Under the pieces are notes generated by a model, which made no database searches, was not told where the DNA came from, and saw only the letters and a program-made list of their open reading frames with translations. A program made the position numbers and the translations under genes. A stretch of 64,000 nt of DNA from Myxococcota bacterium (lineage in GTDB: Bacteria > Myxococcota_A > UBA9042 > PHBI01 > JAWLBL01), in assembly GCA_041687695.1 (NCBI GenBank), contig JAWLBL010000001.1:145710-209709 (forward strand), written 5' to 3'. Positions within the stretch are counted from its first letter, which is position 1, and each line of letters begins with the position of its first letter. Positions 1 through 37,096 of this stretch are shown here, in pieces.

Positions 1-169
1 TCGGGGTCGAGGAGGGGCTGGAAGGGGCCTGGGAGGCTCTACAGCGCGCTGATCCGGGGGAAGGGTCGTCGCGAGTCGTCCGGAGGCGCTGAACGGGCGT
101 CCAGGGGGCGCTACGAGGGAGAGGGGCCCCCCGTGCTATGCTCGTGGCCTCGATTGGGAGGGCTTCGGG
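1..169 (+). promoter_or_regulatory. Conserved non-coding leader of HNH gene copy 1, with extended -10-like TGCTATGCT (134-142) and RBS GGGAGG (156-161)
   Basis: Aligns by eye with 23905-24079 upstream of copy 2 (shared blocks gcgcgctgatc, agggtcgtcgcgagtcgtccg, ctgaacgg-cgtccaggggg, ggcctcgattgggagggct). Truncated by the window edge. Confidence 0.6.
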
Positions 170-1321
170 ATGAGCAAGGGCTTGGAAGTGCTGAGGAAGT
201 TGAGCGACGAGGGGCTGCTGGGGCGGGTCGGCGAGCTGGTCGACCTGGAGCGACGGACGACGGCCAATCTGGTGGTCTCGTTGGCCGAGGTCGAGGTGAG
301 GGAGCTGCACCTGCGGGATGGGAGCCCGTCGCTGTTCACGTGGTGTCGCGAGCGGTGGGGCTTTGGTGAGGACAAGGCCTACAACTACGTGAAGGCCGTG
401 GAGTGGGTGCGACGGTGGCCGGAGATGGGGGCCATGCTGGCCGACGGACGGCTGAGCTTGAGCGGGATGCGGGTGATCGGGCCGCATCTGGACGAGGGGA
501 ACGTAGGCGAGCGGCTGGCCGAGGCCGCCGGCAAGAGCAAGCGCGAGCTGACGGAGCTGGTGGCCCGATGGTCGCCGCGGCCGGACGTGCCGGCGCGGCT
601 GTTCAAGCTGCCGCCGTCCCGGGGCGGAGAGACCGGCGCGGCGAAGCGGGCGACCGCTGAGGAGGCGGACCAGGCGAACACGCTGTCGCTGGAGCGGCCG
701 AAGGTGGAGCATCGGGTCGAGCCGCTCTCGGAGGCGCGGTATCGGGTGCAGGTGACGGTCGGAGCTCGGGTCGCCGCCAAGCTCGAGGAGGCGATGGCGA
801 TCGCCGGGCATCAGGTCGCTTCCGGCGACTATGAGACGCTGCTGGAGATGGCGCTGGACGTCTTCCTGGCCGCCAAGAAGAAGCAGCGGTTCGGGGTGGG
901 AGCCAGGCGGCGGACGAAGAAGGCCGTGGAGAAGGCGCCGAAGGGGGACGACGGGGTCGCCATGGCCGGCGAGTCGGTCGAGGAAGCGGCCGAGAGCGTG
1001 GCCGCGGCGGACGAACCGGCCGGGGCGGAGCCGGACGCGGCGGGGCCGGAGGTGAGAGACCGGAGCCGGGCCATTCCGGCCGAGGTCAAGCGGGCCGTGG
1101 TGGAGCGGGATGGCCTGAGGTGCACCTTCGAAGGCCCGGGGGGACGGTGCAGCGAGACGAGGCGGCTCGAGCTCCACCACGTCGAGGCGTTCGCGAGGGG
1201 CGGCCGGCACTCCGTCGACAACCTCCGCGTCGTCTGTCAGGCCCACAACCTGCTCATCGCCCGGCAGGAGCTGGGGGCCGACTACGTCGCGCGGAAGATC
1301 GGCCGGCGGGACGCGGCGTGA
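170..1321 (+). CDS. HNH endonuclease (helical DUF222-like N-terminus, putative ribbon-helix-helix middle, C-terminal HNH), copy 1
   Basis: C-terminal RDGLRCTF..RC..LELHHVEAFARGG..DNLRVVCQAHN is an HNH/Zn signature; RBS present; paralog at 24080-25300. Confidence 0.85.
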   Translation: MSKGLEVLRKLSDEGLLGRVGELVDLERRTTANLVVSLAEVEVRELHLRDGSPSLFTWCRERWGFGEDKAYNYVKAVEWVRRWPEMGAMLADGRLSLSGMRVIGPHLDEGNVGERLAEAAGKSKRELTELVARWSPRPDVPARLFKLPPSRGGETGAAKRATAEEADQANTLSLERPKVEHRVEPLSEARYRVQVTVGARVAAKLEEAMAIAGHQVASGDYETLLEMALDVFLAAKKKQRFGVGARRRTKKAVEKAPKGDDGVAMAGESVEEAAESVAAADEPAGAEPDAAGPEVRDRSRAIPAEVKRAVVERDGLRCTFEGPGGRCSETRRLELHHVEAFARGGRHSVDNLRVVCQAHNLLIARQELGADYVARKIGRRDAA

Positions 1322-1322
1322 C

Positions 1323-1339
1323 CTTCCGCCCCGGGGCGG
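1323..1339 (-). repeat. Inverted copy of the HNH-associated motif (CTTCCGCCCCGGGGCGG; perfect palindrome at 1326-1339) just after the stop codon
   Basis: 1323-1335 is the reverse complement of CCCGGGGCGGAAG, the end of the array core at 23374-23823. Confidence 0.7.
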
Positions 1340-21144: not shown

Positions 21145-22542
21145 GTGGCCGAGGACAACAACGCCTTCGACCTGGTCGTCATCGGCGGCGGGCCCGGCGG
21201 CTACGTCGCCGCGATCCGGGCCGCGCAGCTGGGCCTGACGACCGCCTGCGTCGAGCGCGACAAGCTGGGCGGCGTCTGCCTGAACTGGGGCTGCATCCCG
21301 ACCAAGGCGCTGCTGCACAACGCCAAGCTCTACCAGGAGCTGTCGCACGGCAAGACCTGGGGGTTCGAGGTCGACGGCCTGCGGGTCGACTGGTCCAAGG
21401 TCATCCAGCGCAGCCGCAAGGTGGCCGACCGCCTGAACAAGGGCGTGCACGGGCTGTTCAAGAAGTACGGCGTCACGCACATCGCCGGCGAGGGCCGCAT
21501 CGATCGGCCGGGCCGGGTGCTGGTGGGCGATCGGGCGCTGTCGTGCAAGCACATCATCGTGGCGACCGGCGCGCGGCCGCGGCCGCTGCCGGGGCTGGCC
21601 TTCGACGGCGAGCGGGTGATGAGCTCGAAGGAGGCGATGGTCGTCGACCCCATGCCCGAGAGCGTGCTGGTCATCGGGGGCGGGGCCATCGGCAGCGAGT
21701 TCGCCTACTTCTTCAACGCGTTCGGCAGCAAGGTGACCCAGGTCGAGCTGCTCGACCGCATCCTGCCGGTCGAGGACCGTGAGGTCAGCGAGGCGCTGCA
21801 GCGGTCGTTCAAGAAGCAGGGGCTCGAGGTCCTGACCGGGACCGTCGCGGCCGACGTCGAGGTGACCGAGGGCGGCGTGCGGGCGCGCCTGAAGCCGGCG
21901 AGCGGCGACGGCGAGGGCGAGGTCCGCGAGTTCAGCCGGGTGCTGGTGGCCATCGGGGTCGTCGGCAACACCGAGGGGCTGGGGCTCGAGGGCGTCGGCG
22001 TCGAGCTGGACCGCGGGATGATCAAGGTCAACGAGGACCTGCGGACGACCTGCCCGGGCATCTACGCCATCGGCGACGTCGCCGGCCCGCCCTGGCTGGC
22101 CCACAAGGCCTCGGCCGAGGGCATCCACTGCGTCGAGCGCATCGCCGGCCACGCGGGCAAGCCGGTCGACAAGACCAACATCCCGGGCTGCACCTACTGC
22201 GAGCCGCAGGTGGCCTCGGTCGGCCTGACGGAGGAGCTGGCCCGCGAGCGCAACATCCCCTTGAAGATCGGCAAGTTCCCCTTCTCGGCCAGCGGCAAGG
22301 CCCTGGCGCTCGAGGAGAAGGAGGGCTTCGTCAAGGTGCTCTTCGACGAGCGCACCGGCGAGCTGGTCGGCTGCCACATCATCGGCCCCGGCGCGACCGA
22401 GCTCATCGCCGAGGCGGCCCTGGCGCGGACCCTCGAGGCGACTGAGGCCGAGATCCTGGGGACCATCCACGCGCATCCCACGCTGGCCGAGGCCCTGCAC
22501 GAAGCGGTCGGCCAGGCGTTCGGGGAGGGGGTGAACTTCTAG
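21145..22542 (+). CDS. lpdA: Dihydrolipoyl dehydrogenase E3
   Basis: GGGPGGY, GGVCLNWGCIPTK, HAHPTLAE. Confidence 0.95.
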   Translation: MAEDNNAFDLVVIGGGPGGYVAAIRAAQLGLTTACVERDKLGGVCLNWGCIPTKALLHNAKLYQELSHGKTWGFEVDGLRVDWSKVIQRSRKVADRLNKGVHGLFKKYGVTHIAGEGRIDRPGRVLVGDRALSCKHIIVATGARPRPLPGLAFDGERVMSSKEAMVVDPMPESVLVIGGGAIGSEFAYFFNAFGSKVTQVELLDRILPVEDREVSEALQRSFKKQGLEVLTGTVAADVEVTEGGVRARLKPASGDGEGEVREFSRVLVAIGVVGNTEGLGLEGVGVELDRGMIKVNEDLRTTCPGIYAIGDVAGPPWLAHKASAEGIHCVERIAGHAGKPVDKTNIPGCTYCEPQVASVGLTEELARERNIPLKIGKFPFSASGKALALEEKEGFVKVLFDERTGELVGCHIIGPGATELIAEAALARTLEATEAEILGTIHAHPTLAEALHEAVGQAFGEGVNF

Positions 22543-22567
22543 CCTTAGGGGCTTCGGGTCGAGCGGC

Positions 22568-23059
22568 CTGGGATCGCCGGCTTTGAGTCGGCTGGGGAGG
22601 CGCGGGGCGGTGGATCGGCGGTCTGGGACCGCCGGCTTCCAGCCGGCTGGACGGCGCGGGGCGGTGGGTTGGCGGCCTGGGATCGCCGGCTTCCAGCTTC
22701 CAGCCGGCTGGACGGCGCGGGACGGTGGGTTGGCGGGCTGGAATCGCCGGCTTCCTGCTGGCCGGACGGGAGCGGGGCGGTGGGTCGGCGGTCTGGGATC
22801 GCCGGCTTCCAGCCGGCCTGGACGGCGCGGGGCGGTGGGTCGGCGGTCTGGGATCGCCGGCTTCCAGCCGGCTGGACGGCGCGGGGCGGTGGGTTGGCGG
22901 CCTGGGATCGCCGGCTTCCAGCCGGCTGGACGGCGCGGGGCGGTGGGTTGGCGGGCTGGGATCGCCGGCTTCCAGCCGGCCTGGACGGCGCGGGGCGGTG
23001 GGTTGGCGGTCTGGGATCGCCGGCTTCCAGCCGGCTGGACGGCGCCGGACGGTGGGTCG
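22568..23059 (+). repeat. REP-like tandem array A: 9 units of ~54-55 nt (CTGGGATCGCCGGCTTCCAGCCGGCTGGACGGCGCGGGGCGGTGGGTTGGCGGN)
   Basis: Units start at 22568, 22623, 22677, 22738, 22793, 22848, 22902, 22956 and 23011; consensus hairpin GCCGGC-TTCCA-GCCGGC (degenerate in units 1 and 4); no unique spacers. Confidence 0.9.
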
Positions 23060-23095
23060 AGGGGCCGAGGGGTTGAGGGGTCGAGGAGGTGCGGT

Positions 23096-23203
23096 AGCCT
23101 CCGCTTCGGCCGGCCTCAAGGGCTTTGTCCCCCTTGGCCGGCCTGGTGGCCGACCAATTCCTCGCGGACGACAAAGCCCTTGACCCCGGCCTACGCTGCG
23201 GCT
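23096..23203. other. Long imperfect inverted repeat/structured element
   Basis: TCAAGGGCTTTGTC (23116-23129) pairs perfectly with GACAAAGCCCTTGA (23170-23183); outer GGCCGG/CCGGCC and AGCC/GGCT stems. Confidence 0.7.
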
Positions 23204-23216
23204 GGCGGGCTGACAT

Positions 23217-23243
23217 CGGCCCGGAAGGGGGCCTTCCGGGCCG
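23217..23243. other. Perfect 12-bp hairpin CGGCCCGGAAGG-GGG-CCTTCCGGGCCG
   Basis: Direct reading; no U-tract, so function is unclear. Confidence 0.65.
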
Positions 23244-23352
23244 CTTCGCGTCCCGGCGCGGGCACTGGGGCAGCGGGTGCGGGGGGAGGCGGCTGGTCGG
23301 AGGCTCCAGGAGGCGGGTCGAGGCTGGTCGCGGGGGTCTGGGATGGAGTGGG

Positions 23353-23372
23353 AATTAAACGGCCGTGTAATT
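23353..23372. promoter_or_regulatory. AT-rich near-perfect palindrome AATTAAACGGCCGTGTAATT abutting array B
   Basis: One mismatched pair in 20 nt; role inferred only. Confidence 0.4.
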
Positions 23373-23373
23373 A

Positions 23374-23823
23374 GTCGTCCCGGGGCGGAAGTCCAGGTCG
23401 TCGTCCCGGGGCGGAAGTCCAGGTCGTCGTCCCGGGGCGGAAGTCCAGGTCGTCGTCCCGGGGCGGAAGTCCAGGTCGTCGTCCCGGGGCGGAAGCGCGC
23501 GGGTCGTCGTCCCGGGCCGGAAGGCGCGCCGGTCGTCGTCCCGGGGCGGAAGCGCGCGGGTCGTCGTCCCGGGGCGGAAGTCCAGGTCGTCGTCCCGGGG
23601 CGGGAGCGCGCCGGTCGTCGTCCCGGGGCGGAAGCGCGCGGGTCGTCGTCCCGGGGCGGAAGGCGCGCCGGTCGTCGTCCCGGGGCGGAAGTCCAGGTCG
23701 TCGTCCCGGGGCGGGAGCGCGCCGGTCGTCGTCCCGGGGCGGAAGTCCAGGTCGTCCTCCCGGAGCGGAACTCCAGGTCGTCGTCCCGGGGCGGAAGCCC
23801 AGGTCGCCGTCCCGGGGCGGAAG
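23374..23823 (+). repeat. Tandem array B: 17 units of 22-nt core GGTCGTCGTCCCGGGGCGGAAG with 4-7 nt linkers
   Basis: Units at 23374 (5'-truncated), 23396, 23422, 23448, 23474, 23502, 23531, 23559, 23585, 23613, 23641, 23670, 23696, 23724, 23750, 23776 and 23802; linkers TCCA, CGCGCG, GCGCGCC, CGCGCC, CCCA. Confidence 0.95.
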
Positions 23824-23904
23824 CCGGGACCAGAAAAGCGACATGCGGACGCGGCGAGGATGCAAATAGTTGTTGACGGATTTCGGGGAGACGTTTTGGG
23901 CGAT

Positions 23905-24079
23905 CCGGGGTCGGCCGGAGGGAGGGCCTGGAAGGCCCCTGGCAGGCTCCACGGCGCGCTGATCAGGGGTCAGGGTCGTCGCGAGTCGTCCGAGAGGCCT
24001 GAACGGCCGTCCAGGGGGTGCTCCGAGGGGATTGAGACCCCCGTGTTATGCTGCAGGCCTCGATTGGGAGGGCTGCGGG
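23905..24079 (+). promoter_or_regulatory. Conserved leader of HNH copy 2, with extended -10-like TGTTATGCT (24044-24052) and RBS GGGAGG
   Basis: Homologous to 1-169. Confidence 0.6.
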
Positions 24080-25300
24080 ATGAGCAAGGGCTTGGAAGTG
24101 CTGGGGAAGTTGTCCGACGAGGGGCTGCTGGGCCGGGTCGGCGAGCTGGTCGATCTGGAGCGGCGGACGACGGCCAACCTGGTGGTTCTGCTGGCCGAGG
24201 TCGAGGCGAGGGAGCTGCACCTTCGGGACGGCAGCCCGTCGCTGTTCGAGTGGTGCCGGACGCGGTGGGGCTTTGGAGAGGACAAGGCCTACAACTACGT
24301 CAAGGCCGTCGGGTGGGTGCGGCGGTGGCCGCAGATGGGCGCCATGTTGGCCGATGGGCGGCTGAGCCTGAGCGGGGTGCGGGTCATCGGACCTCACCTG
24401 AGCGAAGAGAACGTCGGCGAGCGGCTGGCCGAGGCCGCCGGGAAGAGCAAGCGCGAGCTGACCGAGCTGGTGGCGAAGTGGTCGCCGCGGCCGGACGTCC
24501 CCGCGCGGGTGTTCCGGTTGCCACCGCCCCGGGGCGGAGCGCGGGCCGAGGCGCCGAAGCGGACCGAACCGCGGCGCTCTGCCGAGCTGACGCTGGCACA
24601 GCCCAAGCCGAAGCACCGGGTCGAGCCGCTCTCGGAGGCGCGGTATCGGGTGCAGGTGACGGTCGGGGCGCGGGTGGCGGCCAAGCTCGAGGAGGCGATG
24701 GCGCTGGTCGGGCATCAGGTCGCGTCCGGGGACTACGAGACGCTCTTGGAGATGGCCCTGGACGTCTTCCTGGCCGCGAAGAAGAAGCAGCGGTTCGGGG
24801 TCGGGGCCAAGCGGCGGGCGAAGAAGGCCGCCGTGAAGGCGCCCGAGTCGGCCGAGAGCGTGGCCGTGGCCGGCGAATCGGCCGAGAGCGTGGCCGTGGC
24901 CGGCGAGTCGGTCGAGAGCGTGGCCATGGCCGGAGAGTCGGTCGAGGCCGCGGCGAGCGATGCGGAGGCGGAGGTGACGGAACGCAGCCGTGCCATCCCG
25001 GCCGAGATCAAGCGGGCCGTGGTCGAGCGGGACGGGCTGCGGTGCACCTTCGAGAGCCCGGGAGGGCGGTGTACCGAGACACGCCGGCTGGAGTTGCACC
25101 ACGACGAGGCCTTCGCCAAGGGCGGCGCTCACTCGGTCGAGAACATTCGGGTCGTCTGTCAGGCCCACAACCTGCTCATCGCCCGCCAGGAGCTGGGGGC
25201 GCGGTTCGTCGCCAAGAAGGTCGGCGAGCGGCGGGCGGGGGCCGTTCCGCCCCGGGACGGGAGCGCCGACCATCGGCCCGGACGAGCAGGTCGTGGATGA
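24080..25300 (+). CDS. HNH endonuclease, copy 2 (paralog of 170-1321)
   Basis: Same MSKGLEVL start; RDGLRCTF..RC..LELHHDEAFAKGG..ENIRVVCQAHN; linkers differ from copy 1. Confidence 0.85.
   Translation: MSKGLEVLGKLSDEGLLGRVGELVDLERRTTANLVVLLAEVEARELHLRDGSPSLFEWCRTRWGFGEDKAYNYVKAVGWVRRWPQMGAMLADGRLSLSGVRVIGPHLSEENVGERLAEAAGKSKRELTELVAKWSPRPDVPARVFRLPPPRGGARAEAPKRTEPRRSAELTLAQPKPKHRVEPLSEARYRVQVTVGARVAAKLEEAMALVGHQVASGDYETLLEMALDVFLAAKKKQRFGVGAKRRAKKAAVKAPESAESVAVAGESAESVAVAGESVESVAMAGESVEAAASDAEAEVTERSRAIPAEIKRAVVERDGLRCTFESPGGRCTETRRLELHHDEAFAKGGAHSVENIRVVCQAHNLLIARQELGARFVAKKVGERRAGAVPPRDGSADHRPGRAGRG
24845..24946 (+). repeat. In-frame 30-nt tandem repeat (ESAESVAVAG x~3.4) in the HNH copy 2 linker
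   Basis: Units at 24845, 24875, 24905 and partial 24935. Confidence 0.85.
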
Positions 25301-25301
25301 C

Positions 25302-25320
25302 TCCGCCCCGGGACGACGAC
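25302..25320 (-). repeat. Inverted 19-nt copy of the array B core just after the stop codon (a second 15-nt copy at 25245-25259)
   Basis: TCCGCCCCGGGACGACGAC is the reverse complement of GTCGTCGTCCCGGGGCGGA. Confidence 0.85.
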
Positions 25321-25369
25321 TACTCGCCGGCTTCCAGAGACTGTCGTATCGACGCCGCCGAAGGCGGCC

Positions 25370-25486
25370 TTGGAGTGCTCCAGCTTGCTGGAGCCCTGAT
25401 TCGCGCAGCTTGCTGCGCCGGGACGGCGGCGATGTCCCGGCGGCAAGCCGCCGGCGCTGGGGCGCGAGCAAGCTCGCGCACTCCGA
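25370..25486. repeat. REPIN-like element with GGAG-type REP ends and nested hairpins
   Basis: TTGGAGTGCTCCAGCTTGCTGGAGC ... GCGCGAGCAAGCTCGCGCACTCCGA; internal GCGCAGCTTGCTGCGC and CCGGCGGCAAGCCGCCGG. Confidence 0.65.
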
Positions 25487-25646
25487 GTGGGCTCTTTGCG
25501 ACACCCTCTTCCAGCCGGCCTGGTTGAGCGACGACCGAGCGCGGTCCGCCTGGGATCTGTCCCCCCACCCCCAGCCCGCGCCACCCTTTACACCCCGCCC
25601 TCCCCGGCTATCCTGCCGCGGGCCTGACCCTTGGAGGAGGCGCGCG

Positions 25647-26390
25647 GTGGAGGAAGTCGAAGTCCTGCGGATGGCTGAGGCGGAGTCGCGCTCGTGGTGG
25701 TTTCGCGGGCGGCGGCGGGTGCTGGAGGAGGTGCTCAAGCGCCTCGCGATGCCGCCGGACGTGAACATCGCGGATCTGGGGTGCGGGACGGGCGGCAACC
25801 TGGTGATGCTGCGGGCCTTCGGCAAGGTCACCGGGGTCGAGGTCTCGCCGGTGGCGGCCGAGGTGGCGCGCAGGCGGGCCGGGGTCGAGGTGCGCTGCGC
25901 CAGCATGGAGGCGACGGGGCTGCCGGACGCGTCGTTCGATGTGGTGACCGCCTTCGACGTGCTGGAGCACATGGAAGACGACCGGGCGGCGCTGCTGGAG
26001 GTGTGGCGGCTGCTCAAACCGGGTGGGCGATTCGTGGTCACCGTGCCGGCCTTCATGATGCTGTGGAGCGCGCACGACGAGGCGCTGCACCACAAGCGTC
26101 GCTATCGGCGAGGGCCGCTCGCGAAGGCGCTGATGGGCGCCGGCCTGGACGTCGAGTGGCTGACCTACTTCAACGCGGCGCTGTTTCCGCCGGTCGCGGC
26201 CATCCGCCTGCTGCGGCGGCCGTTCGGGGGCGGCGCCAAGGTGGCCGACGGGGTCGAGGCGCTGCCCGGGCCGCTCAACGATCTGCTCGAGGGCGTGTTC
26301 GCGGCCGAGCGGCACCTGGTCGGCCGGGTGCCGCTGCCGGCGGGCGTCAGCCTGGTCGGGGTGGCGCGCAAGCGGGCGGCCGAGAGGTAG
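25647..26390 (+). CDS. Class I SAM-dependent methyltransferase
   Basis: RBS GGAGGAGG, WWFRGRR, DLGCGTG, FDVLEH, LKPGG, HKRRY. Confidence 0.88.
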   Translation: MEEVEVLRMAEAESRSWWFRGRRRVLEEVLKRLAMPPDVNIADLGCGTGGNLVMLRAFGKVTGVEVSPVAAEVARRRAGVEVRCASMEATGLPDASFDVVTAFDVLEHMEDDRAALLEVWRLLKPGGRFVVTVPAFMMLWSAHDEALHHKRRYRRGPLAKALMGAGLDVEWLTYFNAALFPPVAAIRLLRRPFGGGAKVADGVEALPGPLNDLLEGVFAAERHLVGRVPLPAGVSLVGVARKRAAER

Positions 26391-34197: not shown

Positions 34198-35547
34198 ATG
34201 ATCAAGATGATGGCCGGGTCGGGGTTGGGGTTGGCGCTGGTCGTGATGGGCTGCGGGACGCCGGGGAGCGGAGGCAGCGGGTCGCACGGGCCGCTCGTAC
34301 CGATCGACGGCGCGACCACCGATCTCGGCGAGGACGTCGCCAAGGGCGGCGACGCGGCGCTGGAAGGGGACGAGGCGCCCGGCGAGGACGTCGCCGAGAC
34401 CGGCTGCGAACCCGGCGCGACGCGCTGCGAGGGCGCCCAGGTGATGCTGTGCGGCCCCGACCGGGTCAGCTGGACGGCCATCGTGACCTGCCCCGAGGGG
34501 CAGGCGTGCGCCGACGGGGCGTGCTGCACGCCCGACTGCGCCGGCAAGACCTGCGGACCGAACGGATGCGGCGGCAGCTGCGGGACCTGCGGCGCGGGGT
34601 TGGCGTGCGACGGGGGCCAGTGCGTCTGCAAGGGCTCGTGCGAGGGGCGCGAGTGCGGCGACGACGGGTGCGGGACGCTGTGCGGCAGCTGCGAGGGCGG
34701 CGAGCTGTGCGAGGACGGGCAGTGCGTGTGCCAGCCGGACTGCGCCGGGGTGGCGTGCGGGCCGGACGGGTGTGGCGGCAGCTGCGGGACCTGCGCGGCC
34801 GGGCAGGCCTGCGTGTCGGGCGCGTGCGAGTCGACCTGCACGCCCAGCTGCGCGGGCAAGGAGTGCGGCGGCGACGGGTGCGGCGGCAGCTGCGGGACCT
34901 GCCCGGGCGGGTTCACGTGCTCGGCGGCGGGGATGTGCCAGGCGACCTGCACGCCCAGCTGCGCGGGCAAGCAGTGCGGCGGTGACGGCTGCGGCGGCAG
35001 CTGCGGGACCTGCGGCGCGGGGAGCACCTGTAACGCGCAGGGGCAGTGCCAGGCGACGACCGGCGGGTCGTGCTCCGGGTCGTGCGGCGGCCAGTCGTCG
35101 AGCGGCAGCTGCTATTGCGACAACAGCTGCAAGTCGCAGGGCGACTGCTGCGCCGACGCGTGCACGGCGTGTCCGTCGCTGACCGGCTGCGGGTCGTGCA
35201 CGCCCAGCTGCAGCGGCAAGGCCTGCGGGTCGGACGGCTGCGGTGGGTCGTGCGGGTCGTGCGGCGGGGGTCAGGTGTGCCAGAGCGGCAGCTGCGTCAC
35301 CTGCACGCCCTCGTGCGCGGGCAAGGTCTGCGGCGACGACGGCTGCGGGGGCTCCTGCGGCACGTGCGGGCAGGGCATGGCGTGCGCGGCCGGCCAGTGC
35401 GTCGACTGCCTCACCCAGTGCTCGCTCATGTGCACCTCCGATCCGACCGGCTGCCTGTTCGTGTGCAGCCTCGGCTCGGCCGACCTCGACTGCCTGATCG
35501 ACAACGACTGCGACGTGACCGCCTGCTTCGGCCTGCCCTTCCCCTGA
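34198..35547 (+). CDS. Cys/Gly-rich repeat lipoprotein with a somatomedin-B-like module
   Basis: VMGC lipobox; ~7 repeats of CxPxCxGKxCGxDGCGGSCGxC; SCSGSCG..CYCDNSC..GDCCAD. Confidence 0.8.
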   Translation: MIKMMAGSGLGLALVVMGCGTPGSGGSGSHGPLVPIDGATTDLGEDVAKGGDAALEGDEAPGEDVAETGCEPGATRCEGAQVMLCGPDRVSWTAIVTCPEGQACADGACCTPDCAGKTCGPNGCGGSCGTCGAGLACDGGQCVCKGSCEGRECGDDGCGTLCGSCEGGELCEDGQCVCQPDCAGVACGPDGCGGSCGTCAAGQACVSGACESTCTPSCAGKECGGDGCGGSCGTCPGGFTCSAAGMCQATCTPSCAGKQCGGDGCGGSCGTCGAGSTCNAQGQCQATTGGSCSGSCGGQSSSGSCYCDNSCKSQGDCCADACTACPSLTGCGSCTPSCSGKACGSDGCGGSCGSCGGGQVCQSGSCVTCTPSCAGKVCGDDGCGGSCGTCGQGMACAAGQCVDCLTQCSLMCTSDPTGCLFVCSLGSADLDCLIDNDCDVTACFGLPFP

Positions 35548-36836: not shown

Positions 36837-37090
36837 GCTTGCGGTGACGCCGCGAAGGTCTGCGGTAACGCCGCGAAGGTCTGCGGTGACGCCGCGGAGG
36901 CCTGCGGTGACGCCGCGGAAGCTTGCGTGACGCCGCGAGGGCTTGCGGTGACGCCGCGGAGGCTTGCGGTGACGCCGCGGAGGCTTGCGGTGACGCCGAG
37001 AAGGCTTGCGGTGACGCCGCGGAGGCTTGCGGTGACACCGCGGAGTGCTTGCGGTGACGCCGCGGAAGCTTGCGGCGGCGCCGCGCAGGC
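36837..37090. repeat. Tandem repeat, ~12 units of 21 nt (GCTTGCGGTGACGCCGCGGAG)
   Basis: TGCG cores at 36840, 36861, 36882, 36903, 36924, 36944, 36965, 36986, 37007, 37028, 37050 and 37071; between convergent genes. Confidence 0.92.
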
Positions 37091-37096
37091 TCGCCG

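Follow-up and report, generated by a model that had tools for sequence, protein, structure and literature searches.

A gene for an HNH nuclease in a Myxococcota bacterium (assembly GCA_041687695.1) is accompanied by a short DNA motif that is arrayed in tandem upstream of it, embedded within its coding sequence (CDS) and inverted at and behind its 3' end. We describe this element in a window of 64,000 nucleotides, by which we mean the whole stretch of DNA analysed (contig JAWLBL010000001.1, positions 145,710 to 209,709 of the forward strand); coordinates given without a contig name are those of the window. The arrangement is real and strongly non-random, and its conservation extends across phyla. 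The gene and its motif sites belong to a cassette with mirrored ends that is present in many copies in the genome and that, in the window, has been inserted between two genes neighbouring each other in relatives. With somewhat more belief than doubt, we read it as a transposase-free selfish cassette whose protein would dock on its own motif sites and cut beside them, host repair or replication then copying the cassette elsewhere.

Motif sites around and within the HNH gene

The HNH gene of the window copy (24080..25300, + strand; 406 aa, start ATG at 24080) is preceded by an array of 17 motif units (23374..23824, + strand), each composed of GTCGTC-CCCGGGGCGGA-AG and a spacer of 5-8 nt that comes in three types. 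Tandem Repeats Finder places this array at 23374-23825 with a period of 26, 16.8 copies and 89% matches, and a regular expression finds the 17 unit starts between 23379 and 23811 (span 23379-23821) at spacings of 26, 28 or 29 nt. The 11-mer CCCGGGGCGGA is exact in 13 of the 17 units, those at 23511, 23594, 23705 and 23759 being degenerate. A further site on the same strand, CCGCCCCGGGGCGGA (24524..24538; 11-mer 24528-24538), lies inside the CDS, where it supplies the codons for PPRGG in the first of two linkers predicted to be disordered and includes the palindrome CCGCCCCGGGGCGG (24524-24537). Two units on the minus strand close the copy. The first (25245..25259; 11-mer 25246-25256) occupies the codons for VPPRD within the 3' end of the CDS; the second (25302..25322; 11-mer 25302-25312) follows immediately past the stop codon and is the last part of the window copy, which ends ...GACGACGACTA at the border between the array and an AT-rich box (AT box) known from other copies. 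The upstream units with a few degenerate members, the palindromic site within the gene and the two inverted sites behind it are thus all found where the original prediction, made from the letters of the window, had placed them. Counting two occurrences at a paralog near the window start, the window contains the exact 11-mer 18 times; in 100 dinucleotide-preserving shuffles the expectation was 0.40 and the maximum 2. A CRISPR array consists of identical repeats separated by unique spacers of similar length; such a reading was dropped because the spacers here are short and recurrent.

The genome, a draft of 63 contigs (7.97 Mb, 73% G+C), holds 22 full or nearly full paralogs of the HNH gene, 15 of them in clade A (69-86% identity to the window protein) and 7 in clade B (53-58%). 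Genome-wide there are 212 occurrences of the 11-mer, where a first-order Markov model predicts 51. The zone within 1.5 kb of a paralog makes up 1.15% of the genome and contains 159 of these 212 occurrences, as well as 96 of the 99 occurrences of the 16-mer GTCGTCCCGGGGCGGA; the 11-mers found elsewhere mostly belong to gene-less copies of the cassette or are singletons at chance level. An enrichment near paralogs, proposed as a check in the original prediction, is therefore borne out, and the motif is not scattered over the genome without a link to them. An upstream array is present in all 15 clade-A copies, ending about 265-307 nt before the ATG and counting 3-31 units, a number that rests on the assembly, in which some arrays of other copies contain N gaps. 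The embedded site is kept in 14 of these 15 copies, at +449 or +452 in 13 and at the same codons in one N-truncated copy, the last having a degenerate form only, and the inverted units set in within the final codons of the CDS.

Motif and protein lineage co-vary, a relation whose test the original prediction had called for. The clade-A array unit is a hybrid, X-Y', whose X half points outward on both sides. Clade-B arrays are made of the perfect palindrome GTCGTCCCGGGACGAC ('XX'), with a matching GTCGTCCCGGGAC inside the CDS about 25 codons later than the clade-A site, and some clade-A copies carry TCCGCCCCGGGGCGGA ('YY') within or past the CDS. In a maximum-likelihood tree of 21 paralogs, the 14 copies with X-Y' (GTCGTCCCGGGGCGGA) arrays form one side of a 100/100 branch, and the remaining 7 use GTCGTCCCGGGACGAC, one of them in a mixed array. 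In G011, a genome of the same order whose homologs share about 33% identity, another palindrome, ACAGTCCCCGGGGACTGT, stands 705-862 nt upstream in 9 of 9 copies and again 1283-1539 nt past the match start in 8 of 9.

The pattern recurs across phyla. Among 33 loci from Myxococcota, Acidobacteriota and other metagenome-assembled genomes, an 18-nt palindrome with at most 1 mismatched pair was found upstream in 19, in linker 1 in 15 (against a background expectation of 2.0 loci) and downstream in 13. Relatives in other phyla carry palindromes of 18-24 nt inside the CDS at +415 to +589, the overall range of palindrome lengths being 16-24 nt; loci L002-L010, which have short flanks, gave no clear palindrome pattern. 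Most palindromes of the 33 loci fit the frame ACT-N4/5-CCGG-N4/5-AGT with lineage-specific middle bases (ACTCCGTCCGGACGGAGT, ACTCGTCCCGGGACGAGT, ACTGGGTCCGGACCCAGT, ACTTCGTCTAGACGAAGT and others). A constant frame with inner bases that vary between lineages is the trace to be expected of a conserved DNA-binding fold whose specificity drifts. Because linker 1 is disordered in the model and poorly conserved, the embedded site appears to be kept as DNA and not as protein.

A dispersed cassette with mirrored ends

The edges of the window arrays mirror each other, TAGTCGTCCCGGGGCGGA at 23373-23390 being matched at 25302-25322 by TCCGCCCCGGGACGACGACTA, which is its inverse with one extra GTC. The original prediction had described these as two outer ends in opposite orientation. 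The inverse relation stands, but they are array edges and not termini, because full copies continue outward through the AT box and a hairpin module. The best-preserved copies are G000 C6 74788-77990 (3203 bp) and C4 340439-343057. On both sides of full copies, in mirrored order from outside to inside, there follow a copy-specific G-rich repeat, a hairpin module (about 170 nt), a variable G-rich stretch (about 80 nt), the AT box (AATTAAAC-N8-yAATTAG) and the array, with leader and gene toward the centre. Past the gene come up to 14 inverted units, followed by an AT box and the module in inverted orientation. In the C6 copy the two ends align inversely over about 550 nt at 86%, so that terminal inverted repeats are present, and modules are found on both sides in seven copies. 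No other open reading frame lies inside the cassette.

The window copy is complete on its left side. A G-rich simple repeat, GGGTCGAG x4 (23054..23095, + strand; 23054-23086 in Tandem Repeats Finder), lies directly outside the left hairpin-rich module of about 170 nt, which was located by blastn and reads GCGGTAGCCTCCGC...GCGTCCCGGCGCGGG (23096..23270, + strand). The G-rich variable spacer that follows (23271..23352, + strand), found at the same place in other copies, leads to the AT-rich near-palindromic box AATTAAACGGCCGTGTAATTAG (23353..23374, + strand; regular expression), which borders the array on its outer side. On the right, AT box and module are both missing, the copy stopping at 25322, that is, at the array/AT-box border.

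Module and AT box belong to the cassette as closely as the motif does. With the C6 copy as query, blastn gives 51 module hits in the genome, nearly all adjoining HNH paralogs of both clades, and module copies 92-97% identical are found; 60 other genomes of the class yielded only two short matches at chance level. The AT box joined to TCGTCC occurs at 20 sites in the genome (regular expression), all in element copies, gene-less copies or contig ends. Two copies have lost the gene, C7:201564-202461 (898 bp) and C27:85547-86549 (1003 bp), and both keep two modules, AT boxes and motif sites; in the latter, GTCGTCCCGGGACGAC and TCCGCCCCGGGGCGGA alternate, each pair beside an AT box. Several contigs end in modules or arrays, which indicates that the repeats of the cassette break assemblies.

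In the alignment, three module stems keep their pairing through compensatory changes, and the palindrome in the mRNA could likewise form a hairpin. Arrays, embedded palindrome and terminal hairpins might accordingly serve at the RNA level as an attenuator, a processing site or a small RNA. We give this explanation very little credence: the sites are mirrored on both sides of the gene and stand upstream of the promoter region, the perfect palindromes are free of orientation in the manner of sites for dimeric proteins, and no Rfam family matches positions 22000-26000 at E up to 1.

Variants peculiar to one element, compensatory stem changes included, recur in both its left and its right module. 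The mean identity is 0.923 for the modules of one element and 0.896 between elements, which suggests that the two ends are homogenised or that one has been templated from the other. The 60 nt outside 42 modules have a mean G content of 0.54 and a mean C content of 0.20 on the strand reading into the element. In many cases these G-rich flanks consist of a simple repeat peculiar to the copy, examples being GGGGCAGGGGAGA, GGGGGTGGGGAT and GCGCGGGGG. Very G- or C-rich stretches number 386 in the genome, 25 of them within 300 nt of a module where about 2 would be expected. Since G-rich stretches of 60 nt are this common, G-richness alone is not special, and it is the position and orientation at modules that is. 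These flanks may stem from a preferred target or from filler synthesis.

The two ends are unequally preserved. All of the 19 copies assessable on the left carry the module there; on the right it is complete in 7 of 21, partial in 2 and absent in 12 (Fisher p 5.5e-6, for copies that are kin and so not independent). Several right-truncated copies stop at or just past a motif site. Truncation by polar copying at the moment of insertion would produce such an asymmetry, a view weakened by the tree of paralog proteins, in which the four two-ended clade-A copies form, with the window copy, the youngest subclade. Judging from these sequences, loss of the right end with age would account for the asymmetry at least as well. 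Homing of the cassette into empty palindromic module pairs was also considered and rejected, no inverted module pair without arrays between its members being found among the 51 hits.

The neighbours of the cassette in the window are lpdA (21145-22542) on the left and a methyltransferase gene (25647-26390) on the right. The distance between these genes is 3.1 kb here, 254 nt in G010 and 14 nt in G005. These two genomes are the 2 of 6 relatives examined, all sharing only the order with the source genome, in which the two genes are adjacent; in the other four, the methyltransferase gene is not beside lpdA. The cassette was therefore inserted between two genes that are neighbours in relatives. Of the selfish or mobile module originally proposed, a unit behaving like an inserted, multi-copy and self-contained cassette stands, and the likeness to RAYT-REP elements, taken up below, does not.

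The window copy itself sits within another repeat family (22563-23057 and 25323-25560). On its left (22563-23057) is a 54-nt tandem array of 9 units, for which blastn gives 119 hits spread over 54 genomic places; on its right (25323-25560) is a multi-hairpin element of about 200 nt with 354 high-scoring segment pairs genome-wide, which appears to have entered the hairpin GCCGGCTTCCAG^CCGGC at its loop and is flanked on either side by CTTCCAG. From its sequence, this element looks like a very abundant miniature inverted-repeat transposable element (MITE) with a specific target. A 14-nt word, TCGCCGGCTTCCAG, common to both flanks of the window copy is part of this repeat family hosting the copy and was rejected as a duplication made by the element.

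A second copy opens the window and repeats the layout, as had been noted from the start. Its array (G000 C1 145433 onward) and left module (G000 C1 144987-145221) lie just beyond the window start. Its leader (1..169, + strand) and gene (170..1321, + strand; 383 aa, 78% identical to the window protein) lie within, with the embedded motif CCGTCCCGGGGCGGA (612..628, + strand; 11-mer 618-628) and, directly past the stop codon where this copy is right-truncated, the palindrome TTCCGCCCCGGGGCGGT (1323..1339; 11-mer 1325-1335 on the minus strand). Right behind this truncated copy, an 18-nt tandem repeat, CGGCCACGGCCACGGAAC, extends over 1378-1541 in about 6-12 copies. Two unrelated tandem arrays elsewhere in the window, at 36837-37091 and 34765-35057, have 12 copies of 21 nt and 2.7 copies of 111 nt, respectively.

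The HNH protein and its leader

The AlphaFold (AF2) model of the window protein predicts three folded parts joined by two disordered linkers: a ParB-like helical domain (residues 1-136), linker 1, a ribbon-helix-helix domain (186-247), linker 2 and the HNH domain (297-372). The predicted local distance difference test (pLDDT) score is 81.6 for the whole protein, falls below 50 at residues 265-298 and reaches 92.7 for the N-domain folded alone. Linker 2 corresponds to an in-frame 30-nt tandem repeat of 3.4 copies (ESAESVAVAG; 24844..24946, + strand; Tandem Repeats Finder), and its length differs among paralogs. The 10 best Foldseek matches of the N-domain are all ParB, Noc or Spo0J proteins (probability 0.47-0.99, TM-score by query 0.39-0.56, E 0.5 or higher). 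Residues 30-136 superpose on the DNA-binding domain of ParB bound to parS with a VIA-align Z of 7.2 (rmsd 2.9 Å over 95 residues) and on KorB bound to its operator with Z 6.5-7.0, the overall range for ParB/KorB folds being 6.2-7.2. The part of ParB that is matched is the DNA-binding part, and Pfam finds no N-terminal ParB/Srx CTPase domain at E up to 1 in any of 51 relatives. We take the ParB-like nature of the N-domain, which is seen in a model, as a consistent lead and not as proof. The central residues 186-247 match the ribbon-helix-helix proteins pCXC100 ParB, MazE6, NikR, ParD2, TraM and PutA (Z 4.4-5.6), and residues 297-372 match the HNH enzymes McrA, GVE2 HNH, IscB and a nicking HNH (Z 5.8-7.6).

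Pfam and NCBIfam detect only a weak HNH in the protein and no strand-transfer domain; among 51 aligned relatives, Pfam finds the HNH in 45. No recognisable transposase of the DDE, serine, tyrosine or HUH type was found in the cassette protein by Pfam, NCBIfam or structure search. This would suit a passenger or helper nuclease, the cassette being moved by another enzyme or by general recombination and the HNH protein aiding its persistence, for example by cutting cassette-less sites, at which repair would then restore it, as IscB and TnpB do in IS200/IS605 elements; such a division of labour is described in the available parts of two OMEGA reviews (PMC13565253, PMC10690162). The greater likeness of modules within an element also fits repair or gene conversion between copies. 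We nevertheless regard such a helper as improbable, given that no transposase gene lies inside or regularly beside the cassette and that the sites are intact on both sides and in the gene, so that insertion does not destroy them. The IscB (HEARO) assignment itself was abandoned: a RuvC-HNH protein with an adjacent guide RNA is what defines it, and the cassette has no RuvC domain, a guided_IscB match in NCBIfam of 22.9 bits against a cut-off of 175, confined to the HNH part, and no Rfam family at E up to 1.

The catalytic signature C..C..HH..N..C..HN is intact in 21 of 21 full-length copies. The dN/dS between paralogs has a median of 0.31 over 210 pairs and lies at 0.15-0.27 in the closest pairs, values that indicate that all 21 full-length copies are under purifying selection. 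Selection on every copy could also mark a system that serves the host, either defence against foreign DNA or programmed recombination or inversion between copies, as proposed for the 13E12 repeats of mycobacteria, whose genes coincide with inversion breakpoints in the available part of one report (PMC13157036). This seems quite improbable to us, since PADLOC gives no match (best E 0.023), matches in PHROGs cover the HNH part only, and 22 near-redundant copies with decayed right ends and gene-less remnants look selfish.

Between array and gene, a conserved leader (23825..24079, + strand) contains TTGACG at 23873-23878, TGT-TATGCT, which resembles an extended -10 element, at 24044-24052 and GGGAGGG at 24066-24072. 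A TTGACGG box at -207 to -210 and TAnnnT at -33 or -36 recur in 20 of 22 copies with a fixed gap of 168 nt. In G011 the two boxes lie 177-180 nt apart, and two loci of other phyla have them at a distance of 166 nt. A simple promoter and terminator scan of 22500-25700 gave no standard promoter before the HNH gene and no terminator after it, its sole promoter-like site (25587-25614) belonging to the next gene. A -10 box of the extended TGn form may act without a -35 element.

This region invites an explanation in terms of regulation. The arrays could be operators or titration sites of a self-regulated, locus-bound nuclease, acting by autorepression, by sequestering or by a handcuffing-like pairing of arrays, the nuclease not being the cause of the copies. 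The upstream array stops about 40 nt short of the conserved TTGACGG box and promoter region; ribbon-helix-helix and KorB/ParB-type folds typically occur in repressors and centromere binders that act on repeated or palindromic sites; iteron systems, according to the available part of one source (PMC6312765), pair their arrays and adjoin an AT-rich unwinding element; and purifying selection on all copies fits as well. As a full account we find it unlikely, because it leaves the 22 dispersed copies, the mirrored 170-nt modules, the two-ended gene-less copies and the insertion between syntenic genes unexplained and gives no role to the conserved intact nuclease site. Operator or titration effects may, on the other hand, hold alongside mobility.

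Proposed mechanism and comparison with known systems

The selfish cassette that we favour would work as follows. The protein would bind its palindromic or half-palindromic sites as an oligomer, through the ParB-like part, the ribbon-helix-helix part or both, and binding at the two inverted end arrays and at the internal site would draw the ends together. The HNH domain would then nick or cut at a fixed place, for which the array/AT-box border is our best guess, given that the window copy stops at it and that truncation in other copies falls at or just past a site. Spread would proceed through break repair or nick-primed copying by the host; strand transfer is disfavoured because no target duplication was seen. 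The sites upstream of the promoter region would in addition let the protein throttle its own synthesis.

Several observations weigh against this reading. We know of no HNH nuclease that transposes DNA alone. No target-site duplication of at least 8 nt was found at the 7 two-ended copies, the longest direct word shared by their 150-nt flanks being 0-7 nt (null median 8). There are no near-identical copies, and the closest pair has a dS of 0.158, hence no sign of recent movement, although several contigs end in cassette repeats. With the right module complete in only 7 of 21 assessable copies and the two-ended copies of clade A the youngest, most copies may be immobile relics. The purifying selection on every copy would fit a host function too, and the upstream array, just before the promoter region, is placed like an operator. 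The ParB-like match is weak (Foldseek E of at least 0.5), a Z of 7 being within reach of chance for helical models. Finally, the motif switch is one event on the tree and so provides a single contrast within the genome, and counts over related copies and genomes are not independent.

Set against known systems, the cassette lacks what defines RAYT-REP elements, DDE-type transposons, IscB/OMEGA, CRISPR and iteron replicons, though it works like parts of each. RAYT (TnpA-REP) proteins are HUH/Y1 enzymes whose gene is flanked by the inverted short palindromic REP/BIME repeats they are thought to act on. The cassette gene is likewise flanked by short palindromic repeats in inverted orientation, and the original prediction had drawn this parallel. 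It was given up on two counts: the cassette enzyme is an HNH protein and not an HUH/Y1 transposase, Pfam finding only HNH-type families, and the motif keeps to the cassettes (96 of 99 16-mers), where REP sequences are dispersed over the genome as hundreds of extragenic repeats. Moreover, the cassette gene is present in 22 copies, with one site inside the CDS. Transposons with terminal inverted repeats and their MITEs have in common with the cassette long mirrored ends, sub-terminal repeats inside each end, a single open reading frame and short, two-ended, gene-less derivatives. They differ in that the cassette protein has no DDE or other transposase fold, and the cassette no target-site duplication, its termini fading into copy-specific G-rich repeats.

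The arrangement of repeats has its nearest counterpart in plasmid replicons. In P1 incC-repA-incA and F incB-repE-incC, repeat arrays stand on both sides of a gene whose product binds them, and in Bacillus the parB (spo0J) gene itself is known to contain a parS site. The original prediction knew of no described system with this layout; as far as arrays on both sides of a gene are concerned, P1 provides one. Iteron, ParB-parS and KorB-OB systems resemble the cassette in these arrays, in an AT-rich element by the array and in palindromes of about 16 nt as for ParB/KorB-type domains. The cassette, however, is chromosomal and present in 22 copies, and its protein has a nuclease domain and neither a winged-helix Rep domain nor the ParB CTPase domain; no Rep family was hit, and the copies lie in chromosomal contigs between housekeeping genes. 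A free-standing HNH homing endonuclease gene is also a selfish single-gene unit whose HNH is expected to cut a specific site, but the candidate sites of the cassette are intact on both sides and in the gene instead of being split by the insertion, and the cassette is found at many unrelated places and not at one allele. No description of an HNH cassette of such a layout came up in full-text literature searches.

The closest named thing is the REP13E12 ('13E12 repeat') or DUF222-HNH repeat family. To our knowledge, these repeats have been unexplained since 1999. Multi-copy genes labelled 'HNH endonuclease', 'DUF222' or '13E12 repeat' are common in annotations, their mode of multiplication and DNA target being without explanation; here a candidate DNA partner stands beside, inside and mirrored after the gene and changes with the protein. 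The available parts of two papers (PMC10589994, PMC13157036) present REP13E12 as a chromosomal gene in many copies whose product has a helical domain at its N-terminus and an HNH at its C-terminus, in likeness to the cassette, and give it a name and a link to inversions. As far as they go, these parts describe no mechanism of spreading and, in contrast to the cassette, no arrays, palindromes, AT box or terminal modules. The C-terminal HNH (45 of 51 relatives) and the many dispersed copies (22 in the genome) are shared, and DUF222 itself is faint. The window copy matches PF02720 at profile positions 9-150 of 306 with 16.7 bits (E 0.014), below the gathering cut-off of 24.4. DUF222 is found in 1 of 51 aligned relatives and reaches the cut-off in 0 of 40 top representatives, 4 of which give sub-threshold matches.

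At the true DUF222 loci of the genome, 2 of 4 carry 16-nt palindromes of one type. Genes above the cut-off are C40:19432-20355 and C12:173568-174680, with CGCTTCCGCGGAAGCG at +505 in one CDS and CGTTTCCGCGGAAACG three times upstream of the other, and CTTCCGCGGAAG is also present in weak homologs of G016 and G006. The motif rule may therefore extend to the DUF222 family.

A bolder proposal, which we hold only tentatively and think less probable than its opposite, is a new class of mobile DNA without a transposase. A fusion of ParB-like, ribbon-helix-helix and HNH domains would read lineage-specific palindromes, synapse the ends, nick at the array/AT-box border and be copied by the host, and this would also explain the REP13E12/DUF222-HNH repeats. 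Searched against 1.84 billion representatives, a profile of the family collects 10,458 clusters at E up to 1e-30. With so large a family, and with Pfam recognising no more than its HNH part, such a mechanism would annotate much 'hypothetical' sequence. If the proposal were true, this class would consist of a family spread over Myxococcota, Acidobacteriota and further phyla, with more than 10,000 protein clusters, and a nuclease aimed by exchangeable, lineage-specific palindromes would be a source of new sequence-specific DNA-binding and nicking modules. Among systems already named, the cassette is best compared with the REP13E12/DUF222-HNH family and regarded as a variant of those unexplained repeats.

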